From assembly GCA_028716245.1 (NCBI GenBank), contig JAQUQW010000001.1:40793-104792 (forward strand): a stretch of DNA of 64,000 nucleotides, in the 5' to 3' direction. This DNA is from Candidatus Omnitrophota bacterium (GTDB lineage: Bacteria; Omnitrophota; Gorgyraeia; Gygaellales; Profunditerraquicolaceae). The translations under genes were made by a program, and so were the position numbers. The notes below the pieces were generated by a model. It saw only the letters and a list, made by a program, of their open reading frames with translations, did not search any database and had not been told where the DNA came from. Below are positions 23,367-46,338 of the stretch, piece by piece (the first letter of the stretch is position 1; the number at the start of each line of letters is the position of its first letter).

Positions 23367-24908
23367 ATGTCAGATACTAGAGCAGAATTAGAGCAGATGT
23401 ATAACCAAAGTATCAAAGTTTTAAAGGAAGGCCAGGTTGTAAGCGGCAAGATTGTGGAAATTAAGAGTAAAGAAGTTTTAGTGGACGTGGGTTTTAAATC
23501 AGAAGGTATTGTTCCGATCACTGAATTCAGCGCCGTGGATTTAGTTATAGGCCGCGAGATGGAATTTTTGCTGGAGTCTATGGAAAATGACGCCGGCGTC
23601 ATGACCCTGTCCCGTGAAAAGGCGATGAGGATGCAAGGATGGGACCGGATTGTTAAGTTGTCTAATGAGGGGACTTTAGTTGAAGGTAAACCGGTCAAGA
23701 AAGTCAAAGGGGGATTCCTGGTCGATATTATGGGTATCGAAGGGTTCTTGCCCAGCTCGCTTTCCTCTTTCCGGAATATGGCCGATAAGGATATCTTATA
23801 TAAGATATTCAAGTTTAAGATCGTCAAAGTTAATAATTTACGCCGATCCATTATTGTCAGCCGCCGCGAAGCAGTGCAGGCGGATAGGGACATCGCTAAG
23901 GGAAAAATCTGGGGTGAATTGAAAATCGGCAATATTTATCCCGGTTTGGTCAAAGCGATTACCGATTTTGGCGCCTTTATTGATTTGGGCGGAGTTGACG
24001 GCCTGCTGCATATTACGGATATGTCCTGGTCAAAGATCAGCCATCCTTCCGAAATTGTGGCTATCGGCGATAAAATCGAAGTCATGATTTTAAACCTTGA
24101 TCAGGCTTCGGGTAAAGTTTCTTTGGGCCTTAAGCAGAGGCTCTCTGATCCGTGGAAAGATATCGAGAACAAATTCAGCGTCGGGGCAAAGGTAAAAGGT
24201 AAGGTAGTTAATATTTTGCCTTACGGAGTTTTTGTGGAACTGGAAAAAGGAATCGAAGGCCTTATTCACGTTTCCGAGATCTCCTGGACCAAGCGCGTGA
24301 ATAATCCGGGCGAGATGTTTGCCGTCGGAGATATGGTGGAAACCCAGATCTTGAGCATTGAAAAAGATTCCCGCAGGATCTCCCTTAGCTTAAAACAACT
24401 GGAGCAGAATCCCTGGCTGGAAGCGGAATCAAAATACCCGGTTGGCACAAGCGTATCCGGAAAGATCCGCGGTTTTACCGAGTATGGCGCGTTTGTGGAG
24501 CTGGATTCCAACCTGGAAGGCATGATCCATGTTTCCGATATTTCCTGGACCAAAAGGATTGGCCATCCGCAGGATGTTTTAAAAAAGGGGCAGAAGGTCG
24601 ATGTTTCCATACTTTCGGTTGATTCTGCCAACCGCAGGATTGCTTTAGGCTTAAAGCAATTACAGGAGAATCCCTGGCCAAAAATCGCCGAGAAATATCC
24701 TCTGGATACCCAGTTGGAGGTTGAGGTATTTAGCCTGACTGAATTCGGCGTATTTGCCAAGATCGACAGCGAATTGGAAGGGCTGATTTATTCCAGTGAG
24801 ATTGAAAAAGAAACAGCCGCCAATTTAAAACCCGGTGATAAAATAAAGGTTAAAGTAATCAAGGTGGATGTGGAGCAGGCAAAAATCGGCCTGACAGCGC
24901 GTTTATAA
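23367..24908 (+). CDS. rpsA: 30S ribosomal protein S1
   Basis: 513 aa with repeated S1 domains (GxV..I..FGAFV motifs occur 5-6 times). Confidence 0.9.
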
Positions 24909-26074
24909 TGGATATAAACAAGCAGATAGAAATAATTAAAAGGGGCGCTGTAGAGATAATCTCTGAAGATGAGCTTCGTAAGAAGCTGGAGCAGAGCATA
25001 AAACTTAAGCGCCCCTTAAAAATTAAAGCCGGGTTTGATCCTACTGCCCCTGATTTGCACCTAGGCCACACTGTACTCTTAAGAAAACTGCGTCAATTTC
25101 AGGATTTGGGGCATGAAGTTTATTTTCTTATCGGTGATTTTACCGGCCAGATCGGCGATCCTAGCGGCCGCTCTGAAATTAGAAAACAACTCACCAAACA
25201 GGAGGTATCCAGGAATGCCCAAACCTATAAAAAGCAGGTGGCTAAAATTTTGGATATTGGTAAATTAAAGATCGTTTTTAACAGCAAATGGTTTGAAAAA
25301 ATGTCGGGGGTAGAGATGTTGCAGCTTACTACCCATGCTTCGGTTTCTCAGATGCTGGCGCGTGATGATTTCAAGAAGCGTTTTACAAACGGAGAAAATA
25401 TTTCGATTTTGGAGTTTGTTTATCCTTTAATGCAAGGGTATGATTCGGTCATGCTTGAGGCTGATGTGGAGATCGGAGGCACAGACCAGATATTTAACTT
25501 GCTGGTCGGCAGGGAATTTCAAAAAGATTTCAGCCAGCCGCAACAGGTGGTCCTGACTATGCCGCTTTTGGAAGGCACCGATGGCGTAGCTAAAATGAGC
25601 AAGTCCTACGGAAATTATATCGGCATCAATGAACCGGCAAGCGAGATCTTCGGTAAAATCATGTCAATCTCCGACGAGCTAATGCTTAAATATTACGAAT
25701 TGTTAACTGATGAAGAGTTGGTTAAAGTTAAACAGACGCATCCAAAAGAGGCAAAGGTAAATTTGGCCAAGATTATTATCACTCAATATCATTCTGCCGG
25801 GGCCGCGGAAAAAGAAGCGGAAGAATTTTCCCGCGTTTTTTCCCAGAAAGAAATTCCCCAAGATATGCCTGTTTTTAAAACTGACGGCAAAAAAAATATT
25901 CTTACTATCCTTACCGAAAGTAATTTAGCCGCCAGCGGCAACCAAGCGCGCAGGCTGATAAAACAGGGGGCAGTCAGCTTCAATAACGTAAAAATCGAAA
26001 AAGATGATTTTACCCCGATTGAAGCCGGCACCCTTAAGGCCGGTTCCCGCAGGTTCCTGAAAATTACTTTGTAG
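24908..26074 (+). CDS. tyrS: Tyrosine--tRNA ligase
   Basis: HLGH and KMSKS motifs. C-terminal S4-like domain. Confidence 0.9.
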
Positions 26075-26919
26075 ACAGTTTACGTAACCGCATATTCCCC
26101 AATCAGATCTATAAGAAATATTTCTCCGCAAAATAAATGTGGTTAGATTTTTCTACCTTCTGCGTCCATTATAACTGGAGGAGAGAGGACCATGCCATCA
26201 TATGCGCGTAAGCATCAATTGCAACAGTCATTAGTGTATCATGCGTTTAGCCGAAGCAGCGGACGCAAGGTGATTTTTCAAGAATCTAGGGACTTCGATC
26301 ATTTTAAGACCTTGCTTTGCGAGTATAGCAATAGGTTTGATTCAAAAATATATCATTGGGTCATTATGCCGAATCACTACCATCTTGTGGTTGAATTCGA
26401 ATGCCCTGAATTGATTTCGAAATTTATGGCAGGATTACATCGAGCGTATAGCCATTATTACCATAAGCAATATAACGCGGCGGGTTTTTTATGGCAAGGC
26501 AGATTTAAATTACAGCCGATACAAAAAGATTTATATTTGAAAAATTGCGGCAGATATGTGGAGAGAAATCCGGTGCGCGCGGGAATGGTTGCGGAGGCCT
26601 GCGAATATGCGCATAGCAGCGCGCGATTTTATTGTTTAGGACAAGAGGACGGAATAACGCGAGTTAGTCCCGATTTTGAAGACTTCGGAAAAGAGATTGT
26701 TGGGCGACAGGCAGCCTATAAAGAATTCTTGAGAGTTTTTGATAGTAAAGAGAATGTTTATTTCTCGAATATAGAGATCCCCCGTGGTGATCAGGATTTC
26801 CTACGCAGGCTGGTGAAGACAGGTATGCATTATTTTCCGAGAAGGCAAGGCAGGAAAGCCGCAATATTTGTTCCGTAACCATTTAACTTCAATAGAATTA
26901 CCTACACTGTCTATAATTC
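26069..26919 (+). mobile_element. Compact IS-like unit: an IS200-like Y1 transposase (RAYT) bounded by about 20 bp imperfect inverted repeats
   Basis: The left inverted repeat TTGTAGACAGTTTACGTAA (26069-26087) overlaps the tyrS stop. The right inverted repeat ATTACCTACACTGTCTATAATT is at 26897-26918. The reverse complement of the left repeat matches the right repeat at 16 of 19 positions. Both flanks recur around 34196-35544. Confidence 0.6.
26192..26878 (+). CDS. IS200-like / REP-associated tyrosine transposase (Y1 HUH, TnpA_REP-like)
   Basis: HUH motif HYHLVV. C-terminal NPVRAGMVAEACEYAHSSARFY matches the conserved Y1 transposase catalytic helix. 228 aa. Confidence 0.8.
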   Translation: MPSYARKHQLQQSLVYHAFSRSSGRKVIFQESRDFDHFKTLLCEYSNRFDSKIYHWVIMPNHYHLVVEFECPELISKFMAGLHRAYSHYYHKQYNAAGFLWQGRFKLQPIQKDLYLKNCGRYVERNPVRAGMVAEACEYAHSSARFYCLGQEDGITRVSPDFEDFGKEIVGRQAAYKEFLRVFDSKENVYFSNIEIPRGDQDFLRRLVKTGMHYFPRRQGRKAAIFVP

Positions 26920-28097: not shown

Positions 28098-28911
28098 AAA
28101 TATTTTGATTTTGGGAAAAGGATTTATCGGCCAAAGGCTGCAAAGAGAGCTTAACTGTGAAATTGACGGCTCGATGATAAATTGTTTTAGTGATGCGGAA
28201 AAACTGATAAAAAAATACAATCCAAAAATAATCATTAATTGCATCGGCTCGACCGGCAGGCGCAACGTGGATGACTGTGATCTGGATAAGGACGCGGCTT
28301 TGTTGGCAAATAGTTTTGTTCCGGTAATCTTGGCTGAGATATGCCTGCGTAACAGCATCAAGCTTGTGCATATAAGCAGCGGGTGTATTTTTAATTACGA
28401 TTATAAGAAAGATAAGCCGATTAAGGAGGAGAGTGAAGATTATTTTTTCAAGCTTTTTTACAGCAGGAGCAAGATTTACTCAGAGAGGGCTATTGAAGAG
28501 TTAGCGCGCGATTATGATATCCTGATTGCAAGAATTAGGATTCCGCTTATTAACGAAAAACATCCTAAGAATTTGTTAGATAAACTTTTAAAGTATAATA
28601 AGGTCATTAATATCCCTAATTCTGTTACTTATATCCCTGATTTTATCCGGGCAGTTAAACATTTGATAAAGATTGGCGCCCGGGGAGTTTATAATGTGGT
28701 AAATAAGGGTGGTTTACGTTATCCCGATCTTATGCGGGCATATCAAAAATATGTCCCATCGTATAAATTTAAGCTTATTCAAGTAAAGAGCCTTGGGTTG
28801 GTTAGGACCGATTTAATTTTATCTACAAACAAGCTTGAGAAATCCGGTTTTAAGGTTAGGAATATTAACTCAGTCTTAGAAGAATGCGTAAAAGAATACC
28901 TAAAATCTTAG
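28090..28911 (+). CDS. rmlD: dTDP-4-dehydrorhamnose reductase-like SDR
   Basis: Rossmann motif [13 protein letters not shown]. Position between rmlA and rmlB. Confidence 0.6.
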
Positions 28912-29915
28912 TTACCGGCGCCGCCGGCTTTATCGGCAGCGCATTTGTTAGATTATTATCGAAGGGACTGTCCCCGAAGGGGACTGTCCCTGAGGTTACT
29001 ATAATTGATAAACTCACTTATGCCGCAGACCTGAAGCGTCTCGAAGATATTGATAAAAGGGGACTGTCCCCGAAGGGGACTGTCCCCTTTTACAAAGCCG
29101 ATATTTGCAATAAAAAACAGATTGAAAGGATTTTTTTAAAAGAGAAACCGGATATCGTCGTCCATTTCGCCGCTGAAAGCCACGTCGACCGCAGCATTAA
29201 CGATGCTTCGCCGTTTATCGAAACTAACATTAAGGGCACGCAGGTTCTTATTGATGCCAGCCGCAAATACAATATAAAGCAATTTATTTTAATCTCGACT
29301 GACGAAATCTACGGAGAGATTGCCAATGGCAAGTTTAATGAGGATTCTCCGATTAAACCGAACAGCCCTTACGCGGCTTCTAAGGCCGCCGCGGATCTTT
29401 TAGTACAATCATATATCCGGACTTATAAGTTTCCCGCGATAATTATCCGTCCCTCAAATAATTACGGGCCATGGCAGTATCCGGAGAAGTTGATTCCACT
29501 GGCGATCTTAAGAATAATAGAGGGAGGTAAAGTTCCGCTTTATGGTAAGGGGCAAAATGTGCGTGAATGGCTCTATGTAGATGATTGCGCAAAAGGCATC
29601 CTGGCGATTATGGATAAAGGCGCAAGCGGGCAGATTTATAATTTAGGCAGCAGCCAGGAAAGCAGGAATATCGATACGGTAAAACTTTTATTGGAAACTT
29701 TGGGAGTCAGCCAGAAAAGATTTAAATTTGTTAAGGATCGCCTTGGCCACGATATAAGATATAGTTTGGATTCCAAAAAGCTTTACCAAAAGCTCGGCTG
29801 GGAACCCAGCGTTAAACTTGCGCAAGGCCTTAAGCTTACCGTGGACTGGTCGCTTAAGCATCAAGCTTGGCTTAGAAGTAAGCTAGGAGATATAAATAAA
29901 TTGTATAATAAATAG
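28884..29915 (+). CDS. rmlB: dTDP-glucose 4,6-dehydratase carrying two in-frame 10-codon palindromic repeat insertions
   Basis: [24 protein letters not shown] and the YAASKAA catalytic motif. Two surface-loop insertions GLSPKGTVP. The stop codon TAG is part of a REP-like palindrome. Confidence 0.85.
   Translation: MRKRIPKILVTGAAGFIGSAFVRLLSKGLSPKGTVPEVTIIDKLTYAADLKRLEDIDKRGLSPKGTVPFYKADICNKKQIERIFLKEKPDIVVHFAAESHVDRSINDASPFIETNIKGTQVLIDASRKYNIKQFILISTDEIYGEIANGKFNEDSPIKPNSPYAASKAAADLLVQSYIRTYKFPAIIIRPSNNYGPWQYPEKLIPLAILRIIEGGKVPLYGKGQNVREWLYVDDCAKGILAIMDKGASGQIYNLGSSQESRNIDTVKLLLETLGVSQKRFKFVKDRLGHDIRYSLDSKKLYQKLGWEPSVKLAQGLKLTVDWSLKHQAWLRSKLGDINKLYNK
28964..28990. repeat. In-frame tandem palindrome GGGACTGTCCCCGAAGGGGACTGTCCC (REP1 copy 1) inside rmlB
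   Basis: Two units of the GGGGAC-T-GTCCCC palindrome separated by GAA. It encodes GLSPKGTVP. Confidence 0.85.
29059..29087. repeat. REP1 copy 2 inside rmlB (GGGGACTGTCCCCGAAGGGGACTGTCCCC, flanked by AAAA and TTTT)
   Basis: Encodes RGLSPKGTVPF in frame. Confidence 0.85.
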
Positions 29916-29959
29916 GGACAGCGACCATTATTTTTGAAAAATAATGGTCGCTGTCCCTA
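29913..29959. repeat. REP-like palindrome copy 2. A 47 nt perfect palindrome TAGGGACAGCGACCATTATTTTT-G-AAAAATAATGGTCGCTGTCCCTA.
   Basis: Its leading TAG is the rmlB stop codon. It probably also acts as a terminator hairpin. Confidence 0.85.
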
Positions 29960-29975
29960 TTAAAAAAGGAGAGAT

Positions 29976-31034
29976 ATGCCGGTTGTTATAGTAACGGGTT
30001 CCTGCGGTTTAATCGGCTCTGAAACCGTCAGTTTCTTTGCCGAAAAAGGTTTTGATATCGTCGGTATCGATAATAATATGCGCAAAAGTTTTTTTGGCGC
30101 GGATGGCTCAATCCTTTGGAATAAACAGCGTCTCCAGAAACAACATAAAAACTACCGTCATTATCACGTGGATATCCGCGATCAAGGAAAAATAAATTCA
30201 ATATTCAAGAAATTCAATAAAGATATCGCTTTAATTGCGCACGCCGCGGCCCAGCCTTCCCATGATTGGGCGGCTAAAGATCCCATGGTTGATTTTGGGG
30301 TTAATGCTCAAGGCACGCTGGTTATGCTTGAGGCCCTGCGCAAATTCTCACCCCATGCGGTTTTTATCTTTACCTCAACGAATAAAGTCTACGGTGATAC
30401 TCCTAACCGCCTGCCCTTAATTGAAAAAGAAAAGCGTTTTGAAATAGCCGGCGGCCATAAATATTATAAGGGTATCGATGAAACCATGAGCATCGATAAT
30501 TGTTTACATTCAGTTTTTGGGGCATCTAAAGTTGCCGCGGATGTGATGGCCCAGGAATACGGAAAATATTTTCATTTAAAGACCGGCATATTTAGGGGAG
30601 GCTGCCTTACCGGCCCGGCGCATTCCGGAGCCGAACTGCATGGATTTTTGTCTTATTTAGTAAAATGCGCGGTAACAAAACGCACATATAAAATTTACGG
30701 TTACAAGGGTAAGCAGGTAAGGGACAATATTCATTCATTTGATTTGGTTAACGCGTTTTACCACTACTTCCAGAATCCCCGCTTGGGTGAGGTTTATAAT
30801 ATTGGAGGAGGCAGGTTTGCCAATGTGTCGGTTTTAGAAGCAATTGAGATTTGCGAAAAATTAACCGGGGAACAGTTTGAGTATGAGTATATTGATACCA
30901 ACCGTATCGGCGACCACATCTGGTGGATCAGCGATGTCTCTAAATTTAAATCACATTATCCGAACTGGAATTACAAGTTTGGTATCGAAGAAACAATCAA
31001 ACAAATTCACGATAATTATAGACAGTCTATGTAA
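29976..31034 (+). CDS. NAD-dependent epimerase/dehydratase (CDP-paratose 2-epimerase-like SDR)
   Basis: [13 protein letters not shown]ossmann motif. Catalytic YGASKVAAD. Confidence 0.7.
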
Positions 31035-34193: not shown

Positions 34194-34374
34194 TAACGTA
34201 GACAGTGTAGCTAAGATCTTGTAATGTAAAGAGATATAAAACAAATATTTTATATTCAAAGAATTTTTATTAGATTTTACGTCTTTCTACGTCCATTGAT
34301 AGTAGAAAGGAGAGCTTAAATGAGCAATAAACTTTGAGGTTTCATTCTGCAACCTCATGTTTTTACTGGGTAAA

Positions 34375-34432
34375 TAGGGACAGCGACCATTTTTTTCTTC
34401 TATGTGAACAAGAAAAATGGTCGCTGTCCCTA
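34375..34432. repeat. REP-like palindrome copy 3 (TAGGGACAGCGACCAT...ATGGTCGCTGTCCCTA), intergenic
   Basis: Same 14 nt arms as the copies at 5408 and 29913. Confidence 0.8.
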
Positions 34433-35516: not shown

Positions 35517-36236
35517 ATGAGATTACGTACACTGTCTATAATTATTATTCTTCTCTTGGCCACCACTCGCGGATTTTGCTATCCGGCCGACGTAGTCAGC
35601 CTCAACAACCGGGAGTATTTTCCGGCGGCGCAAAAAGCGATCGCGCAGGCAAAGAAATCTATATTTATAGTGATGTATTTAATCAGTTTCGACAAAGAAA
35701 ACAAAAGCTCAAAAGTTTTTCAATTAGTGGACGAACTGGTTAAAGCTAAGCTTAGGGGGGTGGAGGTTAAGGCTATTTTGGATTACCAGAGTAGCTCTAC
35801 TTTTCCCGCGGGCCAGGAAAATTATGCGGCATTTAAGTTTCTTAAGGATAAGGGAATTGATGCTTATTTTGACGGCGCGGTAGTTTACACCCACACTAAA
35901 GCCATGGTTATCGATAAGAGGATAGTTATTTCCGGAAGCCACAACTGGTCTGACGCCGCGCTTGAGAGGAACAACGAGACTTCATTTTTAATCGATTCAC
36001 CTGAATTAGCCAGCCGGCTTTTGGATGAATTTTCGCGGATCAAGCTCTCGAGGCCTGAATTAAAAGAAGGCGCGGTGGCTAGAATTCCATATTGGGCAAT
36101 GGAAAAAAACGGAATTATCCTGGATATGCTCCACCGGCACGATGAAAAGTGTCTTGATACCTGGCTTTTGCTCCTAAGGGATTTTGATGGCAATGCCGCT
36201 GGCCTGGTAAATACAAATTATGAAGTGCTGGCTTGA
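35517..36236 (+). CDS. Phospholipase D-family (HKD) protein with signal peptide, Nuc-like
   Basis: HKD motif HTKAMVIDKRIVISGSHNWS. N-terminal signal peptide. The first codons overlap the right-end repeat of the IS-like unit. Confidence 0.75.
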   Translation: MRLRTLSIIIILLLATTRGFCYPADVVSLNNREYFPAAQKAIAQAKKSIFIVMYLISFDKENKSSKVFQLVDELVKAKLRGVEVKAILDYQSSSTFPAGQENYAAFKFLKDKGIDAYFDGAVVYTHTKAMVIDKRIVISGSHNWSDAALERNNETSFLIDSPELASRLLDEFSRIKLSRPELKEGAVARIPYWAMEKNGIILDMLHRHDEKCLDTWLLLLRDFDGNAAGLVNTNYEVLA

Positions 36237-38206: not shown

Positions 38207-38997
38207 AAGATATTAAAGAAAAAGTATCCGTAATCATGCCTGCTTATAAAGAAGTAGGACATATTGCCAACAGCATAGATATTACGGCTAAGACTTTTCA
38301 GGATTTTGGCTGCCCCTGGGAATTGATTGTGGTCGATGATGGTTCAGAAGATGGGACCTATGAAGCGGCGCTTGAAGCCGCAAAGAAATACCCCGGTTGC
38401 GTCATTGTAAAGAAGAACGCTTTTAATATAGGCAAGGGCCGGGCATTAAAAAGAGCAATCCATTTTGTAACCGGTGATTATACCGTGTTATTGGATGCGG
38501 ATATGGATTTACATCCTTTACAGATAGTAACCCTCTTTGATATTATGCGCCTGAATAATGCTGATGTAGTAATCGGCTCAAAGATGCATCCTAATTCAGT
38601 CGTTAATTATTCGCTGCAGCGTAGAATGATCAGTTTAGGTTACTATATCTTTGTGAAAATACTTTTTGGTTTGCCTTGTCATGATACCCAGACAGGTTTA
38701 AAATTGTTTAAGACTAAGGTTTTAAAGGATGTATTTCCGCGTATTCTGGTTAAGAAATTTGCTTTTGACCTTGAGTTATTGGTAAATGTTTTTCATTTGG
38801 GCTATAAAATAACCGAGGCGTCGATTGTGCTTACTCCTCAGAGAAGATTTGGAAGGGTCAGTTTTTCTTCAATATATACTACTTGGTGGGATACTTGCGC
38901 TGTTTGGTACAGAATGTATGTTTTAAAATATTATGATCGTATCGATTATCATCGCCGTAAAAACCTGGCAAAAGAATTTAGAAGAATGCGTCGCTAA
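38203..38997 (+). CDS. Glycosyltransferase family 2 (Dpm1-like)
   Basis: VSVIMPAYKE, VVDDGSEDGT and DADMD motifs. Confidence 0.8.
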   Translation: MKDIKEKVSVIMPAYKEVGHIANSIDITAKTFQDFGCPWELIVVDDGSEDGTYEAALEAAKKYPGCVIVKKNAFNIGKGRALKRAIHFVTGDYTVLLDADMDLHPLQIVTLFDIMRLNNADVVIGSKMHPNSVVNYSLQRRMISLGYYIFVKILFGLPCHDTQTGLKLFKTKVLKDVFPRILVKKFAFDLELLVNVFHLGYKITEASIVLTPQRRFGRVSFSSIYTTWWDTCAVWYRMYVLKYYDRIDYHRRKNLAKEFRRMRR

Positions 38998-39916
38998 GTG
39001 TTTGGAATTGGATTATCCGGATTTTGAGATAATTATCCTTCCGGATAAAGCTTTCGCTAGGGGACTGTCCCCGAAGGGGGCTGTCCCCATAAAAGTAATT
39101 CCAACCGGTAATCTTAAGCCCGCTGACAAACGCGATATCGGTTCCAAACACGCCAAAGGTGAGATCATCGCCTTTATCGATGATGATGCTTATCCGGTTA
39201 AAGATTGGCTTAAATCTGCTATAGTAAATTTCTCAGATCCAGAAGTGGCCGCAGTCGGAGGCCCGGCAATAACCCCGCCGGATGATACCTTAAGCCAACA
39301 GGCAAGCGGCAAGATTTATTCATCACTTATGGTCAGTGGGAATTTTGTTTACCGCTATGTTCCTAAAGTAAAGAGGACAGTTGATGATTTGCCAAGCTGC
39401 AATTTTATTGTGCGTAAGGATGTAATTGAAGAACTGGGAGGTTTTAATACAAGCTTTTGGCCCGGAGAAGACACAAAGCTATGCCTTGATATTGCGCATA
39501 AGTTAGGCAAGAAGATTATCTATGATCCGGCTGTTCTGGTTTTTCATCATCGCCGCACAGTGTTTATGGCTCACTTGAAGCAAATCGCTAATTATGCTCT
39601 GCATCGGGGATATTTTGTTAAGAAATTTCCGGAGACATCCTTAAAACTATCATATTTTATCCCCAGTATATTTGTCGCAGGTTTAATCTTTGGTCCGGTT
39701 GTTGGATTATTGTCCTATCCGGCTAAGTTATTGTATCTTGTTTGTGCAGTTTTATATTTAACAATAGTTTTTATATCAAGCTTATCAGGGACTAGGGACT
39801 ATCCCCGAAGGGGACTGTCCCTAAGTTTTATGGTTTTCTCAGGTATTGTTCTCACGCATATTACTTATGGTATTTTTTTTATCAAAGGTTTGTTGGCTAG
39901 AGGGTTAAAAGAATGA
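38933..39916 (+). CDS. Glycosyltransferase family 2 with C-terminal TM helices, carrying two REP1 insertions
   Basis: GT-A DxD-like region IAFIDDDAY. Insertions GLSPKGAVP and a degenerate copy at 39788-39822. Confidence 0.7.
   Translation: MIVSIIIAVKTWQKNLEECVAKCLELDYPDFEIIILPDKAFARGLSPKGAVPIKVIPTGNLKPADKRDIGSKHAKGEIIAFIDDDAYPVKDWLKSAIVNFSDPEVAAVGGPAITPPDDTLSQQASGKIYSSLMVSGNFVYRYVPKVKRTVDDLPSCNFIVRKDVIEELGGFNTSFWPGEDTKLCLDIAHKLGKKIIYDPAVLVFHHRRTVFMAHLKQIANYALHRGYFVKKFPETSLKLSYFIPSIFVAGLIFGPVVGLLSYPAKLLYLVCAVLYLTIVFISSLSGTRDYPRRGLSLSFMVFSGIVLTHITYGIFFIKGLLARGLKE
39060..39088. repeat. REP1 copy 3 (GGGGACTGTCCCCGAAGGGGGCTGTCCCC) in frame in the GT2 gene
   Basis: Encodes RGLSPKGAVP. One substitution, A to G, relative to the consensus. 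Confidence 0.85.
39788..39822. repeat. Degenerate REP1 copy 4 (GGGACTAGGGACTATCCCCGAAGGGGACTGTCCC) in frame in the GT2 gene
   Basis: The first unit is disrupted and the second is intact. It encodes TRDYPRRGLSLS in frame. Confidence 0.7.
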
Positions 39917-41418
39917 TGAAAGTCATAATTTCTTATCCGCCATTAAGCAATGAAAAAGGTTGTCCTACTTTAGGCCAGAACCGGCAGTTCCAGTATTTTA
40001 AAGAGCCAACTCTGATTTATCCGGTTGTTCCGGCTACCGCGGCGACTATGCTTAAACAGGCAGGATATGATGTTATTTGGAACGATTGCCTGGCTAAGGG
40101 CTGGAGTTCTGCGCAGTTTCTTGATTTTATTCGTACAGAGCAGCCGGATGTTATTGTTTTTGAAACCAAAACCCCGGTTGTAAAAGAGCATTGGAAAATC
40201 ATTAATGACCTAAAGGAAAGCGCCAGGGGACTGTCCCCGCAGGGGACTGTCCCCGTGATCGTATTATTCGGCGACCACGTTACCGCCTTACCCGAAGAAT
40301 CTTTTCAGAATTCTCAGGTTGATTTTGTCATTACCGGTGGAGATTATGATTTTTTGCTTTTAAACTTATGTAATGTTCTTAAGCAAAGGGGACTGTCCCC
40401 GCAGGGGACTGTCCCCGACAGCGTTGAATTCGAGCCCGGTATATATTATCGAGAGAACGGCCAAATAAAGAATACCGGTAAATTTACTTTAAACCACAAT
40501 TTAGATAAAGTTCCTTTCATTGATCGTGTTCTGACATGTTGGCAGGATTATGCTTATAAGAATGGTAACTATAAGCGTATTCCCGGAACTTATATTATGA
40601 GCAGCCGTGATTGTTGGTGGGGAAAATGCACATTTTGCTCTTGGCCTACGCTTTATCCAAGCTTCCGCAGCCGGAGTGTTGAAAATGTCCTTAATGAAAT
40701 TGGGGAGCTTATTGAAAGGTATAATGTTCGGGAAATTATGGATGATAGCGGGTGTTTTCCGGCGGGAGAGTGGTTGCGTAATTTTTGTCAGGGCATGATT
40801 AGCCGCGGCTATAATAAAAAAATTTACTTTGGCTGTAATATGCGTTTTGGCGCACTAAGTGATGAAGATTATAGTCTTATGAAGCAGGCTAATTTTCGTC
40901 TGCTTTTATTCGGCCTTGAGTCAGCGAATCAAACAACATTAGACAGGATAAATAAGAACCTTAAGGTTGAGCGTATTGTGGAGGGATGTGAGGCAGCGAC
41001 TAAGGCCGGGCTTTACCCGCATATTACGGTTATGTTTGGTTATCCTTGGGAAAGTTATGAAGATGCGCTTAAAACATTACGGTTAGGCAGTTGGCTGCTT
41101 AAGAAGGGATACGCCTATACGATGCAGGCAACTATGGTAATTCCTTATCCGGGAACTCCATTATTTGAAGAATGCAAGAAAGAAGGATGGCTTAAGACTT
41201 TGGATTGGAATGATTATGATATGAAACAGCCGGTTATGCGCACTCCATTTGATGATGTTAAGGTGATGCAGCTTGTTCAGGGGATGTATAAGGTTTCCTA
41301 TCAGCCCGAATTTATCTTAAGAAAATTATTTTCCTTAAAAGATATTGATGATCTAAAGTATTGGTTACGCGCCGCCAGAAAGGTTTTCGGGCATATTGTT
41401 GATTTTAAGAAGGTTTAG
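39913..41418 (+). CDS. B12-binding domain radical SAM enzyme (class B) carrying two REP1 insertions
   Basis: CWWGKCTFCSW (CxxxCxxC). N-terminal B12-binding-like Rossmann region. Insertions GLSPQGTVP twice. Confidence 0.8.
   Translation: MMKVIISYPPLSNEKGCPTLGQNRQFQYFKEPTLIYPVVPATAATMLKQAGYDVIWNDCLAKGWSSAQFLDFIRTEQPDVIVFETKTPVVKEHWKIINDLKESARGLSPQGTVPVIVLFGDHVTALPEESFQNSQVDFVITGGDYDFLLLNLCNVLKQRGLSPQGTVPDSVEFEPGIYYRENGQIKNTGKFTLNHNLDKVPFIDRVLTCWQDYAYKNGNYKRIPGTYIMSSRDCWWGKCTFCSWPTLYPSFRSRSVENVLNEIGELIERYNVREIMDDSGCFPAGEWLRNFCQGMISRGYNKKIYFGCNMRFGALSDEDYSLMKQANFRLLLFGLESANQTTLDRINKNLKVERIVEGCEAATKAGLYPHITVMFGYPWESYEDALKTLRLGSWLLKKGYAYTMQATMVIPYPGTPLFEECKKEGWLKTLDWNDYDMKQPVMRTPFDDVKVMQLVQGMYKVSYQPEFILRKLFSLKDIDDLKYWLRAARKVFGHIVDFKKV
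40226..40254. repeat. REP1 copy 5 (GGGGACTGTCCCCGCAGGGGACTGTCCCC) in frame in the radical SAM gene
   Basis: The spacer is GCA instead of GAA. It encodes RGLSPQGTVP. Confidence 0.85.
40388..40416. repeat. REP1 copy 6 (GGGGACTGTCCCCGCAGGGGACTGTCCCC) in frame in the radical SAM gene
   Basis: Encodes RGLSPQGTVPD. Confidence 0.85.
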
Positions 41419-45182: not shown

Positions 45183-46338
45183 AAGTATTTTATTAGATAG
45201 ATTACGTAGTCTAAAAGTAGCTATTGTTACGCATGTTTATGCAACCGGTCCAGCGCAAGAGTTGGAGGTTTATCTTAAGGATAAAGTAGCCTCATTAATC
45301 TTTATTGGGCATCCTTTTAAATTCGCAGCAGATATCCGTTCGTTTTGTAAAATATATCAGAAAGGTGTAATTAAAAAGCAAACTAAGGCTTACGGTTTTA
45401 GATTGCCTGAGTTGCTTATGTATTTCAAAGATCTCTTATATACTTTTTATTGGGTTATTTATTACCAAGGTAAGTTGGATATTTATTTTGGCGTGGATCC
45501 ATTGAACGCCTTTGTGGGGATTATTCTAAAGAAGTTAGGTAAGGTTGAAAAAGTAATTCTCTACACGATTGATTATACTCCGAAAAGATTTGAAAATAAG
45601 TTTTTGAATTGGGTCTATCATCGAGTAGACAGTTTTTGCGTTCAAGAAAGCGATTTTGTCTGGAATTTATCAGCTCGGATGGCAAAAGCAAGAATGAAGA
45701 AGGGGATAAAAAGATACGAACATCAGATGGTCGTTCCGATAGGAGTAAATTCTGGTAAAATTGAAGGGTCGAGGAAAGAGAGGGTTAATCGCAATTATTT
45801 TGTTTATATGGGGCATCTGAGGAAAAATCAGGGCCTTGAATTGGTTGTTGATGGTTTTAGTGATATAATAAAAGTGGTTCCGGATGCTAGGTTAGTAATT
45901 ATAGGAGGAGGATGCTTAGAGGCGGGAATTAAGAAGATAGTGGTAGAAAATAATTTATCAACTTACGTTGAATTTAAAGGATATCTCCCTGAACATAGTG
46001 ATGTCGAAAATATTCTTGCAACTTGCGGTATTGGTTTAGCTTTATATGAACCAAGCCCTGACAGTATTACCTGGTATACGGATCCCAGTAAGCCAAAACA
46101 ATATATGGCAAGCGGTTTGCCGGTAATTATTACTGCGGTACCTGAGATATCGGAAGAGATAAAGTCGAGGGGTCTAGGTATCGTTATTAATTATAATAGG
46201 GAGAGTTTTGTAAACGGGGCGCTGAGACTTTTACGAGACGATAAACTCTATTTTGAATGTAGGAAGAATGCAACGGAATTTGTTTCAAGTATGCGCTGGG
46301 ATAATATTTTTAGTAAAGCGCTGTCTAGTTGTTTATAG
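45175..46338 (+). CDS. Glycosyltransferase family 4 (GT-B)
   Basis: C-terminal GT1/GT4 region with EX7E-like conservation (YMGHLRKNQGLELVV...IIGGG). 387 aa. Confidence 0.7.
   Translation: MTESILLDRLRSLKVAIVTHVYATGPAQELEVYLKDKVASLIFIGHPFKFAADIRSFCKIYQKGVIKKQTKAYGFRLPELLMYFKDLLYTFYWVIYYQGKLDIYFGVDPLNAFVGIILKKLGKVEKVILYTIDYTPKRFENKFLNWVYHRVDSFCVQESDFVWNLSARMAKARMKKGIKRYEHQMVVPIGVNSGKIEGSRKERVNRNYFVYMGHLRKNQGLELVVDGFSDIIKVVPDARLVIIGGGCLEAGIKKIVVENNLSTYVEFKGYLPEHSDVENILATCGIGLALYEPSPDSITWYTDPSKPKQYMASGLPVIITAVPEISEEIKSRGLGIVINYNRESFVNGALRLLRDDKLYFECRKNATEFVSSMRWDNIFSKALSSCL

Follow-up and report, generated by a model that had tools for sequence, protein, structure and literature searches.

Results

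The rmlB locus and the fold of its product

The stretch of DNA analyzed in the present study (64,000 nucleotides of a Candidatus Omnitrophota contig; hereafter, the window) carries rmlB, the gene for dTDP-glucose 4,6-dehydratase. This gene contains two in-frame copies of a 27-nucleotide (nt) palindromic repeat, designated F1, and ends at a second palindrome, designated F2. The features at this locus, including a transposase gene upstream of rmlB, are as follows.

26072 to 26087, + strand: left inverted repeat of the Y1 gene, TAGACAGTTTACGTAA; its TAG is the tyrS stop codon
26192 to 26878, + strand: RAYT-like Y1 (HUH) transposase gene of the TIRYT / TnpA-Y1 subclass 2.1 type, 228 amino acids (aa)
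26898 to 26913, - strand: right inverted repeat of the Y1 gene, TAGACAGTGTAGGTAA; 14 of 16 positions match the left repeat
28884 to 29915, + strand: rmlB (dTDP-glucose 4,6-dehydratase), 343 aa; identified by TIGR01181, a PDB match, substitution rates, and a structural model
28964 to 28990, + strand: F1 doublet, copy 1 in rmlB; GLSPKGTVP, residues 28-36, alphaA-beta2 loop
29060 to 29086, + strand: F1 doublet, copy 2 in rmlB; GLSPKGTVP, residues 60-68, loop before beta3
29911 to 29961, no strand: F2 palindrome at the rmlB stop, core TAGGGACAGCGACC...GGTCGCTGTCCCTA; abuts or overlaps TAG

The first-pass annotation of this DNA had read the open reading frame (ORF) 28884-29915 as RmlB with two repeat insertions, and the profile, structure, and repeat searches all agreed. 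TIGR01181 scored 398 bits (cutoff 365.1) and was covered from position 1 to 319 of 321, and RmlB/DesIV structures in the PDB aligned with the ORF from end to end (best E = 6e-87). The encoded protein matches one from a Candidatus Omnitrophica metagenome genome with 100% identity. The motifs GxxGxxG, S/T-D-E, and YxxxK are all present (G12-A-A-G15-F-I-G18, S138-T139-D140-E141, and Y163-A-A-S-K167) and are invariant or nearly so among 34 orthologues. At residue 13 (28920-28925), the window protein reads TGAAGFIGS and the 33 aligned orthologues TGGAGFIGS (one of them TGSAGFIGS); this change from G13 to A lies inside GxxGxxG and does not affect the conserved glycines themselves. The ratio of nonsynonymous to synonymous substitution rates (dN/dS) against six orthologues was 0.07-0.11, and the operon order rmlA / rmlD-like / rmlB is kept in six related genomes. 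Among the window ORFs scored with TIGR01181, no second one reached the RmlB cutoff. Therefore, rmlB is intact and under purifying selection, and is very unlikely to be a pseudogene.

A structure was predicted with AlphaFold from 82 sequences, including further orthologues and three window paralogues (pLDDT 85, pTM 0.88); the prediction from only 34 close orthologues (pLDDT 59) was too poor to use. Foldseek placed the model on the solved structures 1keu, 1ker, and 1r66 (RmlB of Salmonella and Streptococcus suis, and DesIV [1r66]) with TM scores of 0.87-0.90 and a root-mean-square deviation of 1.8-2.4 Å. The first insert (residues 27-36) was modeled as coil between alphaA (helix, 16-26) and beta2 (strand, 37-42), and the second (residues 55-68) as coil ahead of beta3 (strand, 69-71), with residues 57-65 being low-confidence coil (pLDDT < 50). 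DesIV (1r66) has a natural loop of equal length at the first site. The inserts had been assigned to loops of the Rossmann domain, and structural modeling had been proposed as the check; the model places both in such loops, with the fold intact and the NAD-binding core not disrupted. In all likelihood the enzyme works, with two additional floppy loops predicted at the edge of the NAD-binding domain. Relative to insertion-free orthologues, the net gain in length is 5 aa at site 1 and 7 aa at site 2, not 9 aa at each.

F1 copies in the window

The 27-nt F1 unit GGGACTGTCCCCGAAGGGGACTGTCCC consists of GGGACTGTCCCC-GAA-GGGGACTGTCCC, and the two rmlB copies are identical. Its 11-mer, GGGACTGTCCC, gave 22 strand-hits in the window with up to one mismatch, against 0.31 expected from shuffled sequences. 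As DNA, copy 1 folds into a hairpin of -13.1 kcal/mol (z = -5.7) and copy 2 into one of -16.3 kcal/mol (z = -5.4). There are six doublets in the window, all on the + strand and all inside ORFs; the four outside rmlB are listed below.

39061 to 39087, + strand: F1 doublet in the GT2 glycosyltransferase ORF 38933-39916, RGLSPKGAVP; one mismatch
39795 to 39821, + strand: F1 doublet in the same GT2 ORF 38933-39916, read in another frame as RDYPRRGLS; one mismatch
40227 to 40253, + strand: F1 doublet (GCA loop) in the B12-binding radical SAM ORF 39913-41418, GLSPQGTVP
40389 to 40415, + strand: F1 doublet (GCA loop) in the same radical SAM ORF 39913-41418, GLSPQGTVP

Every window gene with F1 (rmlB, GT2, and radical SAM) holds exactly two copies, and four doublets lie within 1.4 kb in two adjacent genes (38933-41418, GT2 and B12-radical SAM). 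In PDB alignments of the GT2 and radical SAM proteins, the F1 sites fell outside the aligned regions. An Rfam scan of the whole window yielded no family at the gathering score.

Spread and conservation of F1 across genomes

A search with the pattern GGGACTGTCCCCNNNGGGGACTGTCCC matched at least 120 loci in at least eight phyla. The hosts among the matches listed include Omnitrophota, Aminicenantes/Acidobacteriota, Actinomycetota, Gamma- and Betaproteobacteria, Planctomycetota (including Kuenenia), Myxococcaceae, Eubacteriales, and Saccharibacteria. F1 is a hairpin of 12-15 bp with a central T.T mismatch (A.A on the opposite strand) and a GNA triloop; the loops among the matches listed are mostly of this form (GCA 65, GAA 32, GGA 9, and GTA 5). 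The preceding base is a purine (R) in 129 of 135 copies and the following base a pyrimidine (Y) in 126 of 135; since these flanking bases pair, the unit is effectively 29 nt long. A full-text literature search for the 11-mer returned eukaryotic and viral primers only, with no prokaryotic match.

In high-GC genomes, F1 occurs as singles and doublets in intergenic clusters. Among Omnitrophota doublets, 21 of 30 lie inside ORFs of at least 120 codons, in both orientations; the hairpins appear to have colonized coding sequence in this lineage. Of the 27 intragenic copies from Omnitrophota and the window, 20 read in the frame G(L/Q)SPxGTVP (P = 2e-5). Read from the sequence, F1 with a GAA, GCA, or GGA loop is free of stop codons in all six frames.

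The repeat is conserved at the nucleotide level. Outside the loops, rmlB of the window and its orthologues differ at a proportion of synonymous sites (pS) of 0.46-0.65, with a synonymous divergence (dS) of 0.7-1.5. The orthologous F1 copies match those of the window at 25 and 27 of 27 nt in L122 (L numbers denote loci of other genomes), 26 of 27 in L123, and 25 of 27 in L124. At the eight four-fold degenerate third positions per copy, we found one change in 16 against L122 (P = 5e-5) and none in eight against L123 (P = 2e-4). The 7-kb locus L121 contains no intact F1 unit, only a decayed copy (20/27). To judge from these alignments, the F1 sequence may be kept by re-insertion, by conversion, or by selection on the hairpin.

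In several loci from Omnitrophota and Planctomycetes (L009, L052, L011, L056, L102, and L014 at approximately 3975-4060), an F1 doublet sits at the tip of a longer flanking inverted repeat; in one example, it occupies the loop of a gtcattgcgagg...gacgaagcaatc hairpin. This arrangement suggests nested insertion of one hairpin family into another.

Recurrent insertion at two RmlB loops

We surveyed the two loops in 120 Omnitrophota RmlB proteins (71-100% identity). The inserts are common to many orthologues at 78-85% identity. At site 1, approximately 36 to 45 of the 120 carry the F1 doublet peptide (36 under the stricter automatic classification), and a few have a single unit only (K/RGTVPE). 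Other orthologues carry peptides from at least four other hairpin families (NKWDRFYFS...KNRNGP, RDGSQLKAELSPKKGQFSFGLRTVP, VIARREAPKQS, and KKGISP). In total, at least five hairpin families occupy this site in different lineages, and nested forms also occur; the shortest loops are LAKVTATKI and LTKDASFEV. In the rmlB DNA of L126, site 1 holds a 60-nt hairpin of another family.

Site 2 is empty (LEEVKGKFKF) in 102 of the 120 orthologues, which polarizes the change as an insertion. Where it is filled, the junctions fall into two classes, LE(D/E)I(D/G)K(R/T)-GLSPKGTVP-FYK and LN(W/E/R)-GLSPxGTVP-(N/H/D)FKFYK, which indicates at least two independent events. We therefore regard both loops as recurrent landing or survival sites. 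The claim of independent events is based on the distinct element families and junctions and not on a tree: neighbor-joining with parsimony mapping gave 12 and 61 changes, and was not relied on for proteins that are 72-85% identical. No clean empty site was definable from orthologue DNA, at a dS of 0.7-1.5 and with loops that differ beyond the element. One gene hit by three insertions, as first proposed, is not what the orthologues show: many of them have the inserts too, the same two loops are filled repeatedly, and other hairpin families take the place of F1 in other lineages.

Relatives of these loop peptides also occur as intergenic hairpins. Two further window hairpins are of one build, at 8093-8146 (GGGGACGGTTCTATTTTTT...AAAAAATAGAACCGTCCCC) and 16779-16831 (GGGAACGTTTCTATTTTTTTT...AGAAACGTTCCC); other Omnitrophota have relatives of this family inserted in frame at site 1 of RmlB, where they read NKWDRFYFS...KNRNGP (e.g., L126). 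In L121, the spacer downstream of rmlB, where F2 lies in the window, holds a hairpin of another family at 4009-4074 (gtcattgcgaagcgccgtaggcgctgaagcaatc). Approximately 15 orthologues have the translated form of this hairpin, VIARxxAxKQS, at site 1 of RmlB.

The F2 palindrome and stop codons

F2 at rmlB is perfect over 51 nt, with arms at 29911-29935 and 29937-29961 that are 100% complementary; it folds as DNA at -26.9 kcal/mol (z = -13.9). The F2 arm GGGACAGCGACC has seven hits in the window against 0.10 expected. There are three full copies (5408-5465, 29913-29959, and 34375-34432) with conserved arms and differing loops, of which two lie away from rmlB.

5408 to 5465, no strand: F2 copy at the cbiQ/cbiO junction, read through by the cbiQ ORF
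34375 to 34432, no strand: intergenic F2 copy, identified by arm matches

The earlier description of a perfect palindrome starting at the rmlB TAG is correct as to its start (29913) and perfection, and its length is 51 nt rather than the 47 nt given. The further claim that rmlB borrows its stop codon from this palindrome failed in comparison with orthologues. In L122, F2 is located at the same place with arms identical to those of the window. In L123, which is without the palindrome, rmlB ends ...TAT AAC AAA TAG and encodes the same LYNK C-terminus, and in L124 and L125 it ends AAT TAG, with the ribosome-binding site for the following gene immediately behind. Since palindrome-free orthologues have the same TAG, the rmlB stop is ancestral and the protein end was not changed by F2. 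F2 abuts or shares the TAG and did not supply it. It is plausible that elements with TAG at the outer edge persist beside pre-existing TAG stops, and these elements may possibly prefer TAG or TA as a target. All three F2 copies have TA at both ends, but the palindrome runs through them, and metagenomic relatives are without TA.

Repeats also lie at other gene ends. The SDR gene directly downstream of rmlB (29976-31034) ends ...GAT AAT TAT AGA CAG TCT ATG TAA; its last five to seven codons and TAA (3' end, 31014-31034) are a copy of the Y1 repeat, TAGACAGTCTATGTAA, at 31019-31034. Orthologues without the repeat (L121, L124, and L125) are of equal length with the tail KQIYxSQKEL(L/I)*, and L122 has the repeat tail. 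At the SDR 3' end, therefore, a repeat does supply both the C-terminus and the stop codon. In the cbiQ ORF (4609-5466), the last 18 codons (GTATIFLASLAGKNGRCP) and the TAA stop are encoded by the F2 palindrome; of the 285 residues, the CbiQ profile TIGR02454 reaches only as far as residue 242.

The Y1 transposase of the window

The Y1 gene was detected by tblastn with the Y1 transposase near rmlB in a related contig (L127) as the query; it is located 2 kb upstream of rmlB and is 91% identical to the L127 gene. TIRYTs have been equated with TnpA-Y1 subclass 2.1, and the flank consensus GGGG[AT][CG]A[CG] has been restated for them (Quentin et al. 2018, PMC6006769). The window protein matched PF01797 (E = 7.5e-16) and, as its best NCBIfam model, NF047646 (65 bits, below the cutoff of 80). 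It is 38% identical to the TIRYT gbm 2474 (E = 3e-36), as compared with 26% to E. coli b228 (E = 2e-6). Among the best 80 metagenomic Y1 loci, we found no close relative (at most 37% identity).

From repeat to repeat, the element measures 842 bp (26072-26913) and lies between tyrS (24908-26074) and a PQ-loop gene. The tyrS TAG (26072-26074) doubles as the opening triplet of the left repeat, and tyrS of element-free orthologues terminates at the corresponding codon. L122, L123, and L125 have no such element between tyrS and the PQ-loop gene, and L127 has it, which indicates that the system moved in this lineage. Its repeat, GTAGACAGT, which was compared across genomes with L127 only, shares ACAG and not GGGG with the TIRYT consensus and thus does not strictly carry that feature; it differs from F1 by three outer bases per side (TAG vs GGG). 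The 16-mer (TAGACAGTNTANNTAA) has six hits in the window with up to three mismatches, against 0.39 expected. Solo copies at 31019-31034, 34199-34214, 35523-35538, and 45194-45209 are all at gene boundaries, and two of these are extended by approximately 45 nt similar to the element's right end.

Y1 genes bracketed by F1 and F2-like repeats

The 120 F1 loci were chosen by the F1 pattern alone, and, among the matches listed, tblastn detected Y1 genes in five of them and a weaker sixth in L077 (E = 0.008). In L048, L115 (Aminicenantes), and L016 (Planctomycetota), inverted F1 units stand on both sides of the Y1 gene. In L096 (Actinomycetes), where the available sequence block stops within the Y1 gene, only the upstream flank is covered, and it has three F1 doublets. 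The layout in gene sense is always 5'-GGGACTGTCCC ... Y1 gene ... GGGACAGTCCC-3'. The Y1 gene in L019 is flanked by F2-like GGGGACAYGTACC hairpins, not by F1. The four F1-bracketed loci compare with approximately 0.7 expected by chance (P = 0.006), assuming a per-locus probability of 0.006.

These proteins and the window Y1 matched best NF047646 (56-70 bits, cutoff 80) and PF01797; the IS200 model NF033573 reached only 23.7 bits. Their identity is 38-50% to the published TIRYTs gbm 2474, dau 2153, and rba 2408, as against only 20-25% to E. coli RAYT; for the L048 and L016 proteins, the identity to published TIRYTs is 45-50% (E = 1e-64 to 7e-69). Y1 proteins have a C-terminal extension of approximately 80-90 aa. 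The F1-flanked transposases of different phyla share only 30-37% identity with each other and have the same 11-mer. In L115 (4138-4722, Aminicenantales), the Y1 protein ends ...GQSPSGTVP*, its C-terminus and stop region being encoded by the downstream F1 doublet.

A metagenome scan yielded 566 Y1 relatives, of which the best 80 were analyzed. At least 15 of these 80 are flanked by (A)nGGGGACAG, 5 nt, and a T-run on one side and by an A-run, 5 nt, and CTGTCCCC(T)n on the other. Inverted GGGG[AT][CG]A[CG] flanks are present in these metagenomic relatives and in L048, L115, L016, and L096 (one side). The window F2 (TAGGGACAGCGACCATTTTT ... AAAAATGGTCGCTGTCCCTA) has the same build as those metagenomic flanks, and therefore looks like the two end repeats of an element from which the gene has gone. 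F1 and F2 share GGGACWG...CWGTCCC ends. The first-pass annotation had counted two repeat families; judged by their ends and flanked genes, F1 and F2 are branches of one transposase-linked superfamily.

Discussion

We consider that F1 and F2 are probably non-autonomous hairpins, resembling repetitive extragenic palindromic (REP) or terminal inverted repeat (TIR) sequences, of a TIRYT / TnpA-Y1 subclass 2.1 system. The Y1 transposase would bind the hairpin on single-stranded DNA and copy or re-seed it in trans. Insertions would land widely, and, in genes under selection, only those at permissive sites would persist, namely, surface loops entered in the stop-free frame G(L/Q)SPxGTVP and gene ends. 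The DNA of the element may then stay intact while the surrounding gene diverges, either because re-insertion or conversion continues or because the hairpin itself is under selection.

Several points weigh against this explanation. The exact F1 11-mer was not found beside any of the best 80 of the 566 metagenomic Y1 relatives, and no F1-flanked transposase was detected in any Omnitrophota locus or in the window, where the flanking repeat of the Y1 gene starts TAGACAGT, not GGGACAGT. Moreover, no REP-like sequences were reported beside subclass 2.1 genes (Quentin et al. 2018, PMC6006769). Around 135 F1 copies, we found no target consensus or duplication beyond the R...Y pairing that would speak to the transposition chemistry. 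F1 had no match in viral contigs that could have pointed to a vector for its spread between phyla. Recent mobility is deduced indirectly and not from filled and empty alleles of near-identical genomes. Furthermore, the nucleotide conservation of F1 could equally mean that the hairpin is useful to the host.

The last point leads to the main rival explanation, in which the hairpins are nucleic-acid motifs selected by the host (mRNA stability or RNase sites, translational pausing, attenuators, or protein-binding DNA sites) and the link to the transposase is historical or incidental. The F1 and F2 arms are conserved at orthologous sites far beyond synonymous divergence, the F1 loops retain the GNA form, and folding as RNA gives strong hairpins (F1, -22 to -27 kcal/mol; F2, -38 kcal/mol). 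F2 and related hairpins are located at gene ends, and the REPIN literature argues for a host benefit. However, one function is difficult to fit to a repeat that occurs in unrelated genes, in several frames and both orientations, and elsewhere in intergenic clusters. F1 also brackets transposase genes in a REPtron-like layout, decays in genomes without intact units, is dispensed with by many orthologues, and matches no Rfam family. We regard this explanation as unlikely, but it offers a route to another of similarly low probability, that the 27-nt hairpin is kept and not just tolerated. A domesticated Y1 enzyme and its hairpins would then form a long-lived partnership with the host in the coding sequence of many phyla; the RmlB loops would be reusable landing pads, and the hairpins would work at the DNA or RNA level, as pause or processing sites or as replication-fork sites edited by the enzyme. 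Such a partnership would account for an identical hairpin sequence in phyla between which the transposases share only 30-37% identity, and for its conservation despite synonymous saturation; we put it forward as speculation.

Spread by a mechanism other than Y1, either a DDE transposase acting on miniature inverted-repeat transposable elements with TA duplication or template switching during replication, appears improbable. The TA at both ends of all three F2 copies could be such a duplication, and no F1-flanked Y1 gene was found in Omnitrophota. However, the metagenomic F2-like repeats have only A/T runs and no TA, F1 shows no duplication, and template switching cannot yield the same 27-mer across phyla; the Y1 transposase is the only gene that these repeats bracket repeatedly. 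It is highly improbable that GLSPKGTVP is an ancient loop peptide of the RmlB clade maintained by selection on the protein, with a secondary resemblance to repeats elsewhere. KGLSPxGTVPE does occupy the first loop of many Omnitrophota orthologues, where RmlB loop length varies naturally (e.g., DesIV), but this account is already contradicted at the nucleotide level: the identical 27-mer occurs in unrelated window genes and at least eight phyla, and third codon positions are conserved against a pS of 0.55-0.65. The peptide is also present or absent among orthologues, is replaced by unrelated hairpin-derived peptides, and was modeled as low-confidence coil at residues 57-65. A decaying rmlB pseudogene, with a frame still open after the repeat hits, is very unlikely and the least credible of these alternatives. 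Three repeat elements lie in or at this one gene, and a 64-kb window leaves room for a second rmlB elsewhere in the genome. However, the dN/dS of 0.07-0.11, a score above the equivalog cutoff, invariant catalytic and cofactor motifs, and an operon context conserved in six related genomes all contradict decay, and no other scored window ORF reaches the RmlB cutoff.

Under the non-autonomous hairpin explanation, rmlB is a concrete example, open to checking, of selfish palindromes that occupy the reading frames of housekeeping enzymes in a host other than Rickettsia, and there is a candidate mobilizing enzyme, which the Rickettsia palindromic elements (RPEs) do not have. The explanation also connects a high-copy hairpin repeat, arranged as in REPtrons, with the TIRYT / TnpA-Y1 subclass 2.1 transposases, a poorly understood group whose DNA substrate becomes directly testable with a 29-nt oligonucleotide. 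The two RmlB loops are marked as natural permissive insertion sites. In the annotation of metagenomes, the peptides GLSPxGTVP, GQSPxGTVP, and GDCPRRGLS should be read as repeat-derived, and gene ends in these genomes may have been altered by repeats.

Comparison with known systems

The HUH/Y1 enzymes of the IS200/IS605 family recognize imperfect hairpins on single-stranded DNA and produce no target duplication. The present system resembles this family and the palindrome-associated transposable elements (PATEs) in its Y1 catalytic domain (PF01797) and in the absence of target duplication at F1. However, the Y1 gene is not multi-copy here and reaches only 23.7 bits with NF033573, and the hairpins are bare, not left- and right-end pairs with a defined target tetranucleotide.

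RPEs, in the accounts of Ogata et al. (2000, 2002) as cited in PMC10969869, are likewise in-frame palindromes that add a peptide to unrelated housekeeping genes at sites compatible with the fold. In the same accounts, RPEs are approximately 100-150 bp long, are confined to Rickettsia, and have no known transposase, whereas F1 is 27-29 nt, linked to Y1, and found in many phyla; this comparison concerns size and host, not alignment.

TIRYT flanking repeats have GGGGWSAS in common and are found across the genome singly, as dimers, and in clusters (Di Nocera et al. 2013, PMC3733652). The proteins in the present study are 38-50% identical to TIRYTs, the flanking repeats begin GGGGACAG, which fits GGGGWSAS, and repeat copies also occur as singles, dimers, and clusters. 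In contrast, the repeat here is a minimal palindrome of 11-13 nt, usually doubled, such that a 27-29-nt hairpin containing a T.T mismatch is formed; its Omnitrophota copies are largely within coding regions, and the window Y1 gene has TAGACAGT, not GGGGACAG. REPs inside genes have also been reported (Di Nocera et al. 2013, PMC3733652).

With the REP/REPIN-RAYT systems of E. coli and Pseudomonas (REPtrons), our system shares short imperfect palindromes in high copy number, hairpin-forming doublets, a single-copy Y1 gene bracketed by inverted copies, and long persistence. However, the proteins score below the RAYT equivalog cutoff (56-70 vs 80 bits), and F1 lacks the GT[AG]G foot: the second base upstream is G in 11 of 135 copies and GTAG never occurs. 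F2 has ATAG, and only the repeat of the window Y1 itself begins GTAG. Classical REPs lie outside genes and are specific to a lineage; F1, in contrast, lies within genes here and has an identical sequence in different phyla.

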